This document shows, one piece after another, positions 2,646 to 7,878 of a stretch of DNA of 7,878 bases. How positions within the stretch are numbered: the stretch's first letter is position 1; each line of letters opens with the position of its first letter. Source of the stretch: a virus (taxonomy: Duplodnaviria > Heunggongvirae > Uroviricota > Caudoviricetes). A program made the translations under genes and the position numbers. The DNA lies in the IMG/VR virus record IMGVR_UViG_2671180283_000022; one strand, 5' to 3'. A model generated the notes under the pieces. That model was not told the origin of the DNA and did no database searches. It worked only from the letters and a program-made list of their open reading frames with translations.

Positions 2646-4051
2646 AGTGGCCCTACATCATCGCCGTCAACATAGATAACGCCGTCTTTTTCCAGCTTGC
2701 CCAGCCAGCGCCGGAAGTGCTTCATTTCGTATCCCATCTTCTTCATGTCATCACGCAACAGCGGGATCGTGCACTTGTCGCCGTTCTGTGTGCGTGAACG
2801 GATGCACCCCCATAGCGCGGTATGGTTTTCCGTCTTGTTGCCTGCCTCCTCGATGCGCTCCAGTTCAACGGGTGGGCGCGGCTCATCCACCACCACCAGC
2901 GACGTAATTAATTCGCCGTCAGCGTCGGTAAAAAGCTCCACAACCCGCAAATCATAGGCAGCCTCTTTGAGTTCCTCCGCGTCCTTCATTTTGGTGCATG
3001 AGATGACCAGCGCTTCGCTTCCTGCGTCCTCTCTGCGTATCCTGTATTCAGCGTCCAGCGATGCACGGAATGCACTGGAACCACGCGCGCCCTTTGTTTC
3101 ATCCTTGCCGGAATGGTGAACCACCAGCACCGTGGCCCCTGTGCGTCGTTTCAGTTCGTCACATCCACGGATAAACGCCCCCATGTCACGGGAGTCATTT
3201 TCGTCATTGCCGCCAAAGCAACGCGCCAGCGTGTCCAGAATAATCATTAGAACCGGTTTACCCGTTTCCCGCTCAACCTGGCTGGCAGCAATAACCAGTT
3301 CATCAACATCAAGCGGGACAGCCGGAAAGATGGGACGGTTTACAAGGTAAAGATTTTTCACCTGCTCCCCGTGCACAACCTCCCAGGCTTTTACACGACG
3401 CGGAACGCCAATACCGCCTTCACCAACCACATAGAGAACAGCGCCATGCGCCACCCTGCGGCCTCCCCACTGGCGGCCCGTGGAAACGTGACACGCCCAC
3501 GATCCGGCAAGGAATGATTTATAGGAACCGCTCGCCCCGTATATGCTGCAAAGCGACGATGCCGGAATAATCCCCTTTACCACGTAATCAAGCTGCGTGT
3601 CGTATCCGGTAGATCCAACGCTCATCGGTAGCGTGGTTTTTCGCTGGGGGATTTTTTTCATGACCAGGCTTTCCCCGCGTTCCCATGCCTCCCTAAGCCG
3701 TGGAAGCTGGTCGTTCCATTCCTCCAGCAATTCGAAATTTTCAGAAATTAGCCGCGCCTCCTGGACTCCGGCGATCGCCAGTTTCGTGGCGATGGTTAAC
3801 AGCTGCGGCTCTTCAATATTTCCGGCGCGTATCACCGTCGCCCTGTATCGCCCATCATCAACAATCTGGAGGTTATCCAGTTCGCTTAACTGATAACACC
3901 CCAGATAAACGGGGGGGACTGGATCGCCTGCTTTTTTGGCCTGTGCAATGATGTAGTGCTCTGCAAATGAGTGCGCATCATTCCCCGCGAAAATAATTGC
4001 TTCGGTGTATTTGTCTTTCGGTAATCGTTTTACGTTCGGTGCAAGTTTCAT
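2642..4051 (-). CDS. replication protein with RecA-like (AAA_25/RepA-type) P-loop ATPase domain and an N-terminal domain possibly primase-associated (469 aa)
   Basis: Walker A GASGSYKS, Walker B-like VLMIILDTL, and ...VLVVHHSGKDETKGARGSSAF... typical of RepA-like helicases; ATG 4051-4049 overlaps the upstream stop (ATGA); iterons lie immediately downstream. Confidence 0.8.
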   Translation of the reverse strand: MKLAPNVKRLPKDKYTEAIIFAGNDAHSFAEHYIIAQAKKAGDPVPPVYLGCYQLSELDNLQIVDDGRYRATVIRAGNIEEPQLLTIATKLAIAGVQEARLISENFELLEEWNDQLPRLREAWERGESLVMKKIPQRKTTLPMSVGSTGYDTQLDYVVKGIIPASSLCSIYGASGSYKSFLAGSWACHVSTGRQWGGRRVAHGAVLYVVGEGGIGVPRRVKAWEVVHGEQVKNLYLVNRPIFPAVPLDVDELVIAASQVERETGKPVLMIILDTLARCFGGNDENDSRDMGAFIRGCDELKRRTGATVLVVHHSGKDETKGARGSSAFRASLDAEYRIRREDAGSEALVISCTKMKDAEELKEAAYDLRVVELFTDADGELITSLVVVDEPRPPVELERIEEAGNKTENHTALWGCIRSRTQNGDKCTIPLLRDDMKKMGYEMKHFRRWLGKLEKDGVIYVDGDDVGPL

Positions 4052-4352: not shown

Positions 4353-4580
4353 TTATTCTCCGGTGTGGGGCGCTTTATTATTTTCGTGAATTGCCATCGC
4401 CTTATCCAGTTCATCAATTACAGGCGATAGTAATGTCTGAACGGCGGCAAATATTAATGATGCAGGTTCTCCACCATCTTCCGGCACGTCTATTAACTTA
4501 ATTAACAGCGCATTCATTTCGCGCGCTTTAGTTAATGCGTTTTCAGAGTGGCTTAATACTTCAAAAGGGACTTTATTCAT
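4353..4580 (-). CDS. hypothetical protein (75 aa from ATG 4580; track start is GTG 4583)
   Basis: ATG 4580-4578 overlaps the TGA of the upstream paralog (TGATG); AGGGGG about 10 nt upstream; no family recognised. Confidence 0.5.
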   Translation of the reverse strand: MNKVPFEVLSHSENALTKAREMNALLIKLIDVPEDGGEPASLIFAAVQTLLSPVIDELDKAMAIHENNKAPHTGE

Positions 4581-4744
4581 CACAAAACCCCCTGACGAAT
4601 ACGGGCGACAAAAATCAGATGTGCGTGCGGCAGCTGGGCGCGTGCTTCGCGCTCAGTGGCAGCGGTAACGGTGAATACATCAATGCAGCTGTGGTGGCAC
4701 TGCATAAAGCGCCAGACAAAGTAAGGGCGTGCGGATACAGCCAT
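4580..4744 (-). CDS. small protein, paralog 1 (54 aa), motif FVWRF...TEREAR...ARIRQG
   Basis: ATG 4744-4742 with AGGAG SD 8 nt upstream; translation MAVSARPYFVWRFMQCHHSCIDVFTVTAATEREARAQLPHAHLIFVARIRQGVL. About 50% identical to paralog 2, with synonymous differences at conserved residues. May belong to the Icd-like/Ash-like small proteins of P4-like satellites (unverified memory). Confidence 0.55.
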   Translation of the reverse strand: MAVSARPYFVWRFMQCHHSCIDVFTVTAATEREARAQLPHAHLIFVARIRQGVL

Positions 4745-5030
4745 GTGAAAGGCTCCTACAGTAATTTTAAGGAGTCTCGCTACTACGCTGCTAAACGGGG
4801 TGGCGAGACGTAACAGGGTTAGCAGACTGGCACTGTAGGAACCAGCGAGCGCAAAGGCTCCCCCGTTACGCCCCGCCATAATGCGGGTATGGGTAGGCTT
4901 ACGGACACAAAAAAACCGCATATCGGAATATAAGCGGCTGTCCGCTACAGTATTCAGGCTGCTAAACCCGGTCGCCATGTGGGCGACGGGGGAAGCATAC
5001 AGCCCCGTTATAATTTTTTGCAAGCGGTTT
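4745..5030 (-). other. spacer between the paralogs, open in paralog-1 frame; probable decayed third copy or N-terminal extension
   Basis: No stop in the paralog-1 frame over about 95 codons; contains paralog-like remnants (...MRFFCVRK..., ...FSSVVARLLKI...) and two copies of GCTGCTAAAC plus CTACAGTA leader-like words (4756-4810 and 4945-4992). Confidence 0.25.
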
Positions 5031-5228
5031 TTACGCATGATGTGACCCCTGACGAATACGGGCGGCGAATACAGCAACACAACCGGACGGGCAACGGCTA
5101 CGCGCTTCGCGTTCCGTCCAGGCGGTTACGTGGATGATTTGAGATTCTCCGGCACTCAGGGCCAGAAAACGCCACACAAAGGCCGTTTGTGTGTGTACAA
5201 GGTGTGGTATATGATTTACGGCAACCAT
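5031..5228 (-). CDS. small protein, paralog 2 (65 aa), same family as paralog 1
   Basis: ATG 5228-5226 with AGGAG SD 5 nt upstream; translation MVAVNHIPHLVHTQTAFVWRFLALSAGESQIIHVTAWTEREARSRCPSGCVAVFAARIRQGSHHA; first gene of the replication operon. Confidence 0.55.
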   Translation of the reverse strand: MVAVNHIPHLVHTQTAFVWRFLALSAGESQIIHVTAWTEREARSRCPSGCVAVFAARIRQGSHHA

Positions 5229-5257
5229 AACGGCTCCTAGTTTACGTTGTTGGTTAG

Positions 5258-5301
5258 AAGCCCTGCGAGTGGTAATGACACTTGCGGGGCTTTGCTTTTT
5301 T
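5258..5301 (+). terminator. plus-strand hairpin terminator in the divergent intergenic region
   Basis: 14-bp stem 5258-5271/5279-5292 with 7-nt loop; the two non-Watson-Crick positions are G-U wobbles on the plus RNA but C-A mismatches on the minus RNA; followed on plus by tgctttttt (5293-5301). Confidence 0.45.
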
Positions 5302-5318
5302 AAGTGCTCTTGTGTTAA

Positions 5319-5362
5319 GGTGACCACCTAACAATGGAAAGGCTAATTCAATAGGTGACCAC
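5319..5362. promoter_or_regulatory. direct repeats GGTGACCAC (5319-5327 and 5354-5362), candidate operator in the divergent promoter region
   Basis: Two exact 9-bp copies 35 bp apart, each followed by a yT...AACAA tail, immediately upstream of the Arc-like gene and facing the replication operon; exact hexamers not resolved. Confidence 0.3.
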
Positions 5363-5554
5363 TTGTCAACAATCAAACGCGATAAAAGCCCTAAAGGGGA
5401 CGGGCAATCCCCACAATTCAGAATGCGAATTTCTCCAGAGCTAAAAGAGCAATTCGACAAAGAAGCACAGAGCGACGGCATAAGCCTAGCCAACTGGCTT
5501 AAAGAGTTGGGGCGCACTGAACTAAAGCGGCGCGGCATAGAACCCAAAGGATAA
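5363..5554 (+). CDS. Arc-like ribbon-helix-helix DNA-binding protein (63 aa with TTG start 5363; alternative ATG 5423)
   Basis: ...SPQFRMRISPELKEQFDKEAQSDGISLANWLKELG... parallels the Arc repressor N-terminal strand and helices (PQFNLRWPREVLDLVRKVAEENGRSVNSEIYQRVMESF); AGGTGA SD 4 nt before the TTG; purine-rich on the plus strand. Confidence 0.55.
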   Translation: MSTIKRDKSPKGDGQSPQFRMRISPELKEQFDKEAQSDGISLANWLKELGRTELKRRGIEPKG

Positions 5555-5933: not shown

Positions 5934-6140
5934 TTAAGCAGCCGTTCCGCGTGCTTCCTGTTCGCGTTCTTTCTGCCAGGCCAACACATCATCCTCATAC
6001 CATCCGCGACGGCGTAAACCAACGCGAAAACCCTGCGGAAATTCTCCGGCGTTGATCATGCTTTGCAGCGTGCTGTCTGCCTTGATGTGGATAATTTTTT
6101 TTACTTCCTGGCGAAAGATAATTTTTCTGATTGCTTCCAT
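5934..6140 (-). CDS. alpA: AlpA-family transcriptional regulator / excisionase-like HTH protein (68 aa)
   Basis: ATG 6140-6138 with AAGGT SD; ...IKADSTLQSMINAGEFPQGFRVGLRRRGWYEDDVLAWQ... fits the AlpA HTH pattern (S-T-hydrophobic, G-x-F-P, G-W). Confidence 0.75.
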   Translation of the reverse strand: MEAIRKIIFRQEVKKIIHIKADSTLQSMINAGEFPQGFRVGLRRRGWYEDDVLAWQKEREQEARGTAA

Positions 6141-6636: not shown

Positions 6637-7878
6637 CTACACGGCTCGGATACCCCTTTTACCACTGGCGAGGGTTACGCCCGTCGCCGCAGCCTCGACA
6701 AATTCGCCCCACCAGCGCATCAGCACGATGCGTTTTTCTATGTAGTTGCTCCGGTTGTATGCCCGTCTAACTTCGTTGGTGTCGACGTGGGCAAGTGCCG
6801 CCTCTATTACGTCCGGCTCGAATCCTTCCTCGTTCGCTGCTGTGCTGAATATGGCGCGTAATCCATGAGACACCAGCACGCCAGCGAATCCCATACGCCG
6901 CAATGCTGCGTTAGCTGTCTGGCTGTTCATCGGCTGCTGTGGGTCTTTCAGACTTGGGAAAACGTAATTGCGGTGGTGGCTGATTGGTTTCATGGCCTCC
7001 AGCACCGCCATAGCCTGACCGGAAAGCGGGATAACGTGATCCCTGCGCATCTTCATGCGTCCGGCAGGTATCGTCCATTGCTTCGCGTCCAGGTTGATTT
7101 CATCCCACCGCGTTGATGACGCTTCGGCGGGACGGGTTACGGTCAGTAACTGCCATTCAATCAGTAATCTGGTCTGCCGTTCTGTTGCCGATACTGATAA
7201 AGCCTGCATAAGCTCCGGCAGCTGTTCGGGGCGGATTGTTGGCATATGTTTTTTTACAGGTGAGGGAAACGCCTTACGCACATTCATAGCCGGATTGGCA
7301 TCAATCAGCCCACTGTTGGCGGCGTAATCCATTACCTCATTAACGCGCTGTAAAACCCGCTTGAGTGTTTCCAGGTTGCCGCGCTCCTTGATGGGGGTAA
7401 GCACTTCAACGAACCTTCGGGCGGTGAGGGTATCTATTGGCGTGTTGCCGATGAACGGGAATACATATTTATCCAGCGAACGCCAGATGTCTTTAATCGT
7501 GTTGGGGGCCAGATTCTGGCTGATTTTCACCTGGTACCATGCCGCCGCCACATTTTCGAACGTGTTCCCTTGTCTTCGGGCCTCTGTCTCTCTTTTTTGC
7601 CTCTCGTGGTCCTGCGGGTCAGTTCCGGCACTGATTAACGTCCTGTACTCGCTACGGCGTTTTCTGGCATCAGCCAGGGAAACATCTTCAAGCGATCCAA
7701 AACTCAGCAATATTCTTTTTTTGTCCGATGGTCGGTAGTAGGAAAATCTCCAGAGTTTTGATCCAGACGGTTTGACCAGGAGAAAAAGCCCTCCGCCGTC
7801 CTGCAGGGTGTACTCCTTTTGCGCTGGTCTGGCTGCTTTGATCTGCACTGTGGTTAATGGGTGTGTTTTTCTCGCCAT
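6637..7878 (-). CDS. int: P4-type tyrosine integrase (413 aa, complete; ATG is the last triplet of the window)
   Basis: N-terminal arm-binding signature ...LTTVQIKAARPAQKEYTLQDGGGLFLLVKPSGSKLWRFSYY...; C-terminal catalytic region with ...HGLRA... and ...RAYNRSNY... (putative catalytic Tyr); stop TAG at 6639-6637. Confidence 0.9.
   Translation of the reverse strand: MARKTHPLTTVQIKAARPAQKEYTLQDGGGLFLLVKPSGSKLWRFSYYRPSDKKRILLSFGSLEDVSLADARKRRSEYRTLISAGTDPQDHERQKRETEARRQGNTFENVAAAWYQVKISQNLAPNTIKDIWRSLDKYVFPFIGNTPIDTLTARRFVEVLTPIKERGNLETLKRVLQRVNEVMDYAANSGLIDANPAMNVRKAFPSPVKKHMPTIRPEQLPELMQALSVSATERQTRLLIEWQLLTVTRPAEASSTRWDEINLDAKQWTIPAGRMKMRRDHVIPLSGQAMAVLEAMKPISHHRNYVFPSLKDPQQPMNSQTANAALRRMGFAGVLVSHGLRAIFSTAANEEGFEPDVIEAALAHVDTNEVRRAYNRSNYIEKRIVLMRWWGEFVEAAATGVTLASGKRGIRAV

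Follow-up and report, generated by a model that had tools for sequence, protein, structure and literature searches.

Immunity region of a putative P4-like phage satellite: a C4/CI-type antisense RNA and its targets between two Icd/Kil-like genes

In immunity systems of the P1 immI and P4 type, the regulatory RNA is processed by RNase P and PNPase from the transcript that it controls, and a translational block or premature termination results. The immI region of P1 and P7 is arranged as P51b, a1/b1, c4, b2/a2, icd and ant1/2, and the minimal active core of P1 Icd consists of residues 12-51 (PMC11897509). In P4 the layout is nested, with Kil (65 aa) inside Eta (199 aa), and the passage of PMC10111431 that cites Forti et al. 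1999 describes the function of eta translation as preventing immunity-specific termination. A third system is isrK-orf45-anrP of Gifsy-1 in Salmonella, in which translation of an ORF overlapping a putative C4 homolog was shown experimentally; the stable RNA of that system, STnc1160, was likened to the P4 CI RNA by the same study (PMC4825925).

The window analysed here is a stretch of 7,878 nucleotides from the Caudoviricetes record IMGVR_UViG_2671180283_000022, and all features described below lie on its minus strand unless stated otherwise. With a probability of roughly 0.85, we take the locus to be the immunity and early-leader segment of a phage satellite, P4-like or of PICI type, that is built like P4 (PLE-seqA-cI-seqC-kil/eta) and like P1/P7 immI (a1b1-c4-b2a2-icd). 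The setting is that of a satellite: an integrase and an AlpA-type regulator are present, a primase/helicase operon lies downstream, and capsid and small-terminase genes are also found on the island. Relatives were drawn from IMG/VR and an E. coli genome collection, in which part of the region was matched in 1412 of 5426 complete genomes. A scan of genome contigs with the two-paralog alignment gave one locus only.

As the preliminary description had reported, two small genes are present, each with an AGGAG Shine-Dalgarno sequence. The first gene of the operon, icd-1 (5031-5228, ATG at 5228, Shine-Dalgarno at 5234-5238), encodes 65 aa. The second, icd-2 (4580-4744, ATG at 4744, Shine-Dalgarno at 4757-4753), encodes 54 aa, is nested in a longer Eta-like ORF, and has a stop codon overlapping the start of the gene that follows (GTGATGA, 4583-4577). 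The earlier guess at an Icd-like family was correct: NCBIfam model NF033153 (host cell division inhibitor Icd-like) matches the 65-aa and 54-aa proteins at 64.7 and 55.5 bits, both above its curated cutoff of 25, and the same model matches the references P1/P7 Icd at 52.7 bits and P4 Kil at 76.1 bits. The accompanying suggestion of an Ash-like protein failed, since neither small protein nor the 166-aa frame matched PF10554 (Phage_ASH); for these three sequences no Pfam family was matched even at E <= 1. In BLASTP, residues 5-49 of icd-2 are 51% identical to P1 Icd 8-50, an alignment spanning most of the minimal active core, and residues 17-65 of icd-1 are 39% identical to P1 Icd 12-57. Both are real genes of Icd/Kil type and encode putative cell-division inhibitors.

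Protein-level selection acts on the two genes, which are paralogs, as had been claimed from the letters alone. Their alignment contains 24 identical residues (44%), and its local score of 96 compares with 23.6 +/- 4.7 for shuffled sequences and was reached by none of 2000 shuffles. Different synonymous codons are used at 9 of the 24 identical residues. Across 28 loci, the variable columns at codon positions 1/2/3 number 33/33/52 and 17/16/28 in the two genes, a third-position excess. A 19-nt block is indeed identical between them (5046-5064 and 4589-4607). It encodes ARIRQG and includes a G-run located 5-8 nt before the next coupled start, the first copy preceding the ATG at 5038 of the Eta-like ORF and the second preceding the GTG/ATG at 4583/4580. 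The icd gene of P7 ends in the identical CAGGGGGG, ahead of ant1, and the G-run may serve as a Shine-Dalgarno sequence for the downstream gene.

The paralogy of the two Icd-like proteins stems from tandem duplication of the whole module in this lineage. In eight relatives there are two C4 copies, in two whole modules of targets, c4 and icd, together with a truncated extra icd 5' end ("icd-0"), which precedes the first module and is not part of the spacer. The icd-1 of the window is a hybrid of the 5' part of "icd-0" and the 3' part of "icd-1": window 5330-5156 is 98% identical to positions 1555-1729 of the relative L008, and window 5148-5031 is 95-99% identical to its positions 2097-2214. The 367 nt with isrK and the upstream c4 copy found in such loci are missing from the window, and no C4 RNA occurs upstream of icd-1 within it. 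In our reading, the RNA part of the upstream module was lost by recombination between the icd repeats. The repeated duplication supposed earlier is partly correct, at the level of whole modules, but it did not leave a decayed gene copy in the spacer.

What lies between the two genes is an RNA gene. Rfam model RF01695 (C4 antisense RNA) matches 4796-4883 over model positions 1-87 of 87 with 71.5 bits (gathering threshold 45, E = 7e-13), and homology to the 77-nt c4 annotated in P7 places the mature RNA at about 4877-4799 (~79 nt). The single-sequence fold has a free energy of -45.4 kcal/mol (z = -4.9), and compensatory changes occur in 7 of 22 consensus pairs among 12 diverse copies. At the DNA level, identity is about 80% to the c4 region of P1 and P7, in which c4, icd and ant are annotated, and likewise to that of D6 and SJ46. 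The gene is found ~52 nt upstream of icd-2 in every close relative (L005-L032). Apart from the RNA loops and targets, the spacer is more conserved than either icd gene across the 28 related loci; the minor-allele fraction is 0-0.15 over 5039-4770 except at the a' loop, where it peaks at 0.21, compared with 0.05-0.46 over icd-1. Its variable columns are distributed 22/24/17 over codon positions 1/2/3, which is not a coding-type substitution pattern. Rfam also gave a weak plus-strand hit to rnk_pseudo (5181-5301, E = 0.41), which was dismissed as a terminator-driven chance match.

The short words repeated in this locus, which comprise the direct repeat families D3, D4 and D8 and the inverted pair I2, are the a'/a1/a2 and b'/b1/b2 elements of the C4 antisense system. 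The duplicated leader words pointed out in the preliminary description therefore exist, but they are RNA target repeats. The C4 RNA has GGUUCCUACAGUG as its a' loop (4843-4831) and CUGCUAA as b' (4825-4819). The b2 target UUAGCAG (4788-4794) is complementary to b', and the a2 target UACUGUAGGAGCC (4751-4763) forms 13 contiguous pairs with the a' loop and includes the Shine-Dalgarno sequence of icd-2. The pairing of a' with a2 is retained in 99.2% of cells, compared with 37-50% when slid, with 59 double-change cells; for a1:a' plus b1:b' it is 97.8% of cells versus 16-41% when slid. In each case none of 500 shuffles reached the observed score. Each a' loop finds its best partner in its own a2, the duplexes averaging -20.0 kcal/mol for cognate and -11.2 kcal/mol for non-cognate combinations. 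Two b types covary across b', b1 and b2 in all 28 loci, and at least seven a specificities (another a' loop type is, for example, CCAGAUGA) occur with the two b specificities in 12 combinations. An action of C4 on the ribosome-binding site of icd-1 was also considered and rejected, as only a 9-nt match was found there, to the constant GGAGCC part.

Upstream of the C4 gene a constitutive internal promoter is predicted at 4994-5023, with TTGCAA (5023-5018), an 18-nt spacing and TATGCT (4999-4994). It may be the equivalent of P4 PLE and P1 P51b, with a predicted start near 4987, exactly where the isrK-like match has its 5' end. This is a consensus-level prediction from the P1/P7 alignment, where it aligns by position with TTGACC-17-TATAGT ahead of a1/b1, and it is absent from the list of a simple promoter scan. 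In the 28 loci, 5039-5010 is nearly invariant and 5009-4980 varies little (minor-allele fraction 0.002-0.03). A seqA/IsrK-like leader follows at 4909-4987, as delimited by Rfam and folding. It consists of a hairpin (4987-4971), the b1 hairpin (4970-4955) with its core UUAGCAG at 4965-4959, a1 UACUGUAG at 4952-4945, and a terminator formed by a hairpin and a U7 run (4937-4909). The Rfam scores in the window are somewhat below the gathering thresholds, being 45.5 bits at 4951-5000 for RF03163 c4-a1b1 (gathering 46.7) and 35.7 bits at 4909-4987 for RF01394 isrK (gathering 50). Near-identical relatives score 46.8-48.5 bits for c4-a1b1, and the upstream modules of relatives and P4 score 60.8-66 bits for isrK.

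All these RNA elements are crossed by one long reading frame. An Eta-like ORF of 152 aa (4580-5038) begins at an ATG (5038-5036) that overlaps the icd-1 stop (ATGCGTAA, 5038-5031), passes through the promoter, the seqA-like element, the terminator, c4 and the targets, and enters icd-2 in frame after 98 open codons. It was correctly noticed before that the 286-nt spacer (4745-5030) is open in the icd-2 frame, the full ORF being 166 aa (4580-5080). The spacer has no stop in phase compared with 6 and 7 in the other registers, and the probability of an in-phase opening is 0.006 by dinucleotide shuffles. The diverged upstream modules similarly have 0 in-phase stops versus 8-11 and 2-4 (P = 0.02-0.06), and for P4 the corresponding probability is 0.023. 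The fusion frame is conserved, as it is open in 26 of 27 related loci and broken in L011 only, and the ATG overlapping the upstream stop is conserved as well. Genome annotation already contains the frame, since the PGAP gene sets of E. coli W24 and N32 include a homologous gene of 154 aa. It is probably translated as a pass-through frame.

A competing explanation is that the 152-aa frame is an annotation artefact: the spacer would be purely non-coding RNA or regulatory DNA, only the 54-aa gene would be translated, and the stops would be absent by chance. We consider this unlikely, although several observations are in its favor. The spacer lacks a third-position excess, single-nucleotide +1/-1 indels occur inside the extension, the frame is broken in L011, stops are found 11-14 codons upstream of icd in P1/P7, and a transcript from the internal promoter would be without the ATG at 5038. 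Nevertheless, the indels are compensated in 15 of the 16 loci that have them, and the bias against in-phase stops, found again in the diverged upstream modules and in P4, is accompanied by the conserved overlapping start. The described function of P4 eta translation and the translated orf45 of Gifsy-1 also argue against an artefact. Translation through c4 is not universal, however, because P1/P7 and the L043-type loci do not have an in-phase open frame.

The opposite explanation, a longer two-domain protein, had been offered as an alternative before. For the length of the product there is precedent in the nested eta/kil of P4. A functional N-terminal part of 98 residues, acting as a regulator or an Ash/Bro-type domain ahead of the Icd domain, is in our judgment very improbable. 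Long "Icd-like" entries do exist (the 154-aa PGAP annotation; phrog_29966 in PHROGs, 188 aa), and the spacer translation weakly matches phrog_995 "transcriptional regulator" (E = 0.019). But the N-terminal part has no Pfam or NCBIfam domain, its 98 codons have neither a codon-position signature nor amino-acid-level constraint in the 28 loci, and compensated frameshifts alter 7-30 of its residues between relatives. The promoter, hairpins, c4 and targets fully explain the constraints on the sequence. That the spacer is instead a decayed third copy of the small gene, a pseudogene from repeated duplication as first supposed, can be dismissed as next to impossible: short words are common to spacer and gene leaders and relatives do possess the truncated "icd-0", though upstream of the first module, but the 166-aa frame contains a single Icd-like domain (residues 121-163) with no remnant in the spacer and no PHROGs Icd family for the spacer translation, the spacer is conserved beyond the functional genes and shares homology with the P1 and P7 region in which c4 is annotated, and the repeated words are covarying complementary target sites.

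With C4/CI antisense immunity RNA and its targets as the spacer between Icd/Kil-type paralogs, the locus is read as an immunity switch of the ordinary P4/P1 type, carried by a phage satellite. In the mechanism proposed here, the internal promoter would constitutively produce a short leader, part of which would end at the terminator at 4937-4909 while the rest would be processed to the C4/CI RNA. The a' loop and the b' segment would then pair with a2/b2 just upstream of icd-2, and icd-2 would remain untranslated because its Shine-Dalgarno sequence is buried by this pairing. The coupled genes that follow (orf76, DUF4222 and the AAA_25 helicase-primase) would be shut off as well, in both transcription and translation, and the same C4 loops could also pair with a1/b1 beside the leader terminator. 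When the upstream regulated promoter fires, icd-1 would be translated, ribosomes would re-initiate at the overlapping ATG at 5038, and translation of the Eta-like frame through the terminator, c4 and a2 would override the RNA immunity, as described for P4 eta. The sequence comparisons establish what the parts are, how they relate to P1, P7 and P4, that their pairing covaries and that the frame is kept open; the promoter, the processing of the RNA, the effects on termination and polarity and the bypass by translation are inferred.

A broader idea is put forward tentatively, and we think it rather unlikely. The C4 modules of E. coli satellites may represent combinatorial immunity types that can be stacked in tandem with different specificities, and loss of a module by recombination between icd repeats, as here, may leave icd-1 outside RNA control, so that translating this gene would supply the Eta-like frame with ribosomes and serve as an immunity-overriding switch. 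If so, the tandem stacking and shuffling of modules would set the cross-repression among co-resident satellites and P1-like plasmids.

When compared with P4, the locus has the same order on a single strand, namely an internal constitutive promoter (predicted in the window), seqA or the seqA-like element with terminator, CI RNA, downstream target and an Icd/Kil-family gene of ~55-65 aa. The C4 model matches the P4 CI RNA and the isrK model matches seqA. The frame of P4 likewise starts at an ATG (8767) overlapping the orf88 stop and passes through the RNA gene, with 134 open codons before the kil ATG, and P4, too, is a satellite that has an integrase and an AlpA-type regulator, with its primase/helicase operon downstream. 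On the other hand, the c4 sequence of the window is nearer to that of P1/P7 (~80%) than to that of P4, an Icd-like paralog takes the place of the alpA/orf88 homolog as the upstream coupled gene, and the module is tandemly duplicated in relatives of the window. Downstream, replication is represented by an AAA_25 helicase-primase (phrog_2850) and not by P4 alpha, and the island also has the capsid and small-terminase genes.

With P1/P7 immI the locus has ~80% DNA identity over 190 nt, a span that includes b1, the terminator, c4 and b2. The cores of b1, b2 and b' are identical, in both loci the ribosome-binding site of icd is overlapped by a2, icd-2 is close to the active core of P1 Icd (51%), and the 3' end of icd carries the G-run that the coupled downstream gene probably uses. 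The differences are that the P1/P7 frame through c4 is closed shortly before icd, no upstream icd copy is present there, P1 Icd is longer by ~20 C-terminal residues, and the downstream cargo is the antirepressor Ant instead of replication genes.

In Gifsy-1 (PMC4825925), a short IsrK-type leader RNA with a terminator precedes a processed stable RNA, as is predicted for the window, and the translated orf45 overlaps this RNA, with translational coupling to the gene that follows. An ATG within the c4 of the window (4879) is located exactly 45 codons upstream of the icd-2 ATG, a parallel to orf45. But orf45 is a separate ORF followed by an antirepressor-like protein, whereas the frame in the window is fused to the Icd-like domain, and IsrK is an activator in trans there.

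The locus adds no new principle beyond P4 and P1. Its main value lies in correct annotation. Genome pipelines currently label the stretch between the icd genes as part of a 154-aa "Icd-like protein", but it houses an RNA immunity gene and the targets of that RNA; it is more than a protein's N-terminus and is not a pseudogene. In addition, within a PICI-like satellite that is common in E. coli, the locus provides a clean natural case of three-way covariation between an antisense RNA and two target sets, and an example of a reading frame held open across an RNA gene.

The two small minus-strand genes, icd-1 (5031-5228; 65 aa, upstream) and icd-2 (4580-4744; 54 aa, downstream), each with an AGGAG ribosome-binding site, are Icd/Kil-family paralogs as judged by their sequences. 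Their products share 24 identical residues (FVWRF ... VTA.TEREAR ... ARIRQG) with an alignment score of 96 compared with 23.6 +/- 4.7 in shuffles (n=2000), synonymous codons differ at 9 of these 24 residues, and a 19-nt block is common to both genes with no differences. The Icd-like family, only guessed in the preliminary description, was borne out by profile search: NCBIfam NF033153 ("host cell division inhibitor Icd-like protein", cutoff 25 bits) scored 64.7 bits for the icd-1 product and 55.5 bits for the icd-2 product, with P1/P7 Icd at 52.7 bits and P4 Kil at 76.1 bits for reference, while neither protein matched a Pfam family. P1 Icd targets FtsZ and its minimal division-inhibiting core is residues 12-51 (PMC11897509). 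Residues 8-50 of P1 Icd, which span most of this core, are 51% identical to Icd-2, and the identity of P1 Icd to Icd-1 is 39%.

The 286-nt spacer between the genes (4745-5030) is identified from its sequence as a C4/CI immunity RNA module. Scanned against Rfam, the window has three minus-strand matches, namely the C4 antisense RNA (RF01695; 4796-4883; 71.5 bits, gathering score 45), the c4-a1b1 target motif (4951-5000; 45.5 bits, gathering score 46.7) and an isrK-like leader with a terminator at its end (4909-4987; 35.7 bits, gathering score 50). The predicted c4 fold has -45.4 kcal/mol (z = -4.9), and 7 of the 22 stem pairs show compensatory changes among 12 diverse copies. By BLAST, window 4786-4975 shares about 80% identity with the c4 region of P1, P7, D6, SJ46 and P1-like plasmids numbering in the hundreds, and the P7 record is annotated in the order c4, icd (50 nt downstream) and ant1/2. 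In a three-way alignment of the window, P1 and P7, b1, the terminator, c4 and b2 are all in register, and TTGCAA-18-TATGCT (5023-4994) aligns with the P1/P7 promoter 5' of a1/b1. Also, the main c4 stem has a 3' arm (GUCUCGC) that can alternatively pair with GCGAGAC at 4773-4779 (window 4773-4810, third fold), which puts b2 inside a hairpin; this may be a conformational switch between processed and unprocessed forms, as with structures A and B of the isrK locus.

Support for a functional RNA system, in which the C4 segments a' and b' pair with upstream (a1/b1) and downstream (a2/b2) targets, came from IMG/VR loci, of which 44 were fetched with Icd-2 as query. C4 lies about 52 nt upstream of icd-2 in every close relative (L005-L032), and in the 28-locus alignment conservation is higher in the spacer than in the coding sequence of either gene. 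The exceptions are short variable hot spots, all on the minus strand, at the c4 loop a' (4843-4831), a2 (4763-4751), a1 (4952-4945), b' (4825-4819), b1 (4965-4959) and b2 (4794-4788). The a and b sites co-vary three ways, with 7 a types and 2 b types in 12 combinations, and each a' loop has its own a2 as best partner (mean a':a2 duplex -20.0 kcal/mol for cognate vs -11.2 kcal/mol for non-cognate). For a':a2 and b':b2, 99.2% of the cells are paired compared with 37-50% when slid (59 cells with changes on both sides), and for a1:a' and b1:b', 97.8% compared with 16-41% (53 such cells); the observed score was reached by 0 of 500 shuffles in both cases. In the window, 13 contiguous pairs join the c4 loop to a2, UACUGUAGGAGCC, and the icd-2 Shine-Dalgarno sequence lies within a2. 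The "duplicated leader words" noted earlier, GGAGCCTTT and GTTTAGCAGC, are indeed present, but belong to these RNA and target elements.

As for repeated duplication and decay, whole-module duplication survives but decay in the spacer does not. Two complete modules, [isrK-c4-icd]-[a1b1-c4-icd], occur in 8 relatives, where the frame, followed further upstream, enters a truncated "icd-0" whose N-terminus is shared by the window Icd-1. The icd-0 leader and 5' part correspond to window 5330-5156 (98% to L008 1555-1729) and the icd-1 3' part to window 5148-5031 (95-99%), and the 367 nt with isrK and the upstream c4 that lie between these matches in relatives are missing; the upstream gene is therefore a hybrid from recombination between tandem icd repeats. 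A decayed third protein copy in the spacer is ruled out by profile, PHROGs and codon-position evidence, since the Icd-like profile hits the 166-aa frame once, at residues 121-163, and has no match in the spacer, a PHROGs search of the spacer translation gave no Icd family, and variable columns at codon positions 1/2/3 number 22/24/17 in the spacer, read in the long frame, compared with 33/33/52 in icd-1 and 17/16/28 in icd-2.

The spacer is nevertheless open in the icd-2 frame, with 0 stops in phase and 6 and 7 in the other registers (shuffle P = 0.006). This Eta-like frame opens at ATG 5038, in an overlap with the icd-1 stop (ATGCGTAA), encodes 152 aa and closes at the icd-2 stop; PGAP labels a homolog as a 154-aa "Icd-like protein". 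The diverged upstream modules of double-c4 loci have 0 stops in phase and 8-11 and 2-4 in the other registers (300 nt upstream, L020 and L031 excluded; shuffle P 0.02-0.06), and the N-terminal part of P4 eta has 0 in phase and 3 and 6 in the others (P = 0.023). The frame is unusually stop-free despite no coding-type constraint being found in its N-terminal 98 codons, where 15 loci carry compensated +1/-1 indels and one (L011) an uncompensated indel. The in-phase frame is absent from P1/P7 and L043-type loci and is therefore a P4-like-lineage trait. With the claimed paralogy, synonymous codon differences, identical block and open spacer all found, the earlier observation is therefore real; a known kind of system already accounts for the locus, and the practical value is annotation correction.

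The window is a P4-like or PICI-type satellite, with an integrase (6637-7878), an AlpA-like regulator (5934-6140), a 63-aa Arc/YlcI/HicB-like gene (5363-5554, plus strand, divergent from icd-1), the immunity region, orf76, DUF4222, an AAA_25 helicase-primase, a small terminase (1087-1707) and a major head protein (1-924) that runs off the window end. C4 and isrK matches are reported for Gram-negative PICIs (PMC10111431). Counting the ATGCGTAA overlap at 5031-5038, together with the orf76 start on the icd-2 stop (GTGATGA, 4577-4583) and the DUF4222/helicase-primase overlap (ATGA, 4048-4051), most of the early operon is predicted to be translationally coupled, and a translational block at icd-2 would be passed to the replication genes through this series of stop/start overlaps. 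Between orf76 and DUF4222 there is a gap of 5 nt. Between icd-1 and the divergent gene, a 12-bp near-palindrome (AGGTG-nn-CACCT) occurs at 5318-5329 and 5353-5364, 35 bp apart, with one copy adjoining a TTGACA hexamer (5369-5364); the pair are probably operators for the island repressor, controlling the upstream (late-type) promoter. On the plus strand, antisense to the leader of icd-1, 5257-5303 holds a strong terminator-like hairpin of 15 pairs with a T-run behind it; no gene on that strand ends at this point, and on the minus strand it would amount only to a 5'-UTR hairpin.

Several proteins in databases result from translating across C4/CI RNA genes (L003 3569-3859; P4 8168-8584; PHROG 29966, 188 aa, where residues 127-186 form the Icd domain). 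For example, a PGAP 'Ash family protein' pseudogene overlaps a C4 match, and the historical P4 'cI gene product, transcriptional repressor' is such a translation.

When compared with P1/P7, the window differs in that the frame through c4 is open in phase, and its own major head and small terminase genes (1-1707) set it apart from classical P4 and closer to capsid-forming PICIs. In P4, the old "cI 137-aa" ORF (8168-8584) spans the CI RNA (C4 model at 8420-8507, 74.9 bits) and terminates with the 65-aa Kil, and its frame reaches back to ATG 8767, overlapping the orf88 stop, to give the 199-aa Eta. PMC10111431, summarising Forti et al. 1999, describes Kil as a truncated Eta and places a constitutive promoter inside eta, whose transcript is terminated via CI and seqA interactions and processed into CI; when eta is translated from the upstream late promoter, in coupling with the alpA homolog, this termination is prevented. 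Gifsy-1 orf45 overlaps the processed stable RNA STnc1160, likened to P4 CI RNA, and is translated and coupled to the following gene (PMC4825925). By analogy, P4 supplies the explanation for the stop-free frame, and P4 eta is the counterpart of the long frame: both run from an ATG overlapping the stop of the upstream gene, through the RNA, into a Kil/Icd-family gene. Because of this layout and the Gifsy-1 orf45 parallels, we interpret window 4580-5038 as a pass-through frame of the Eta type, in which a Kil/Icd-like gene is nested.
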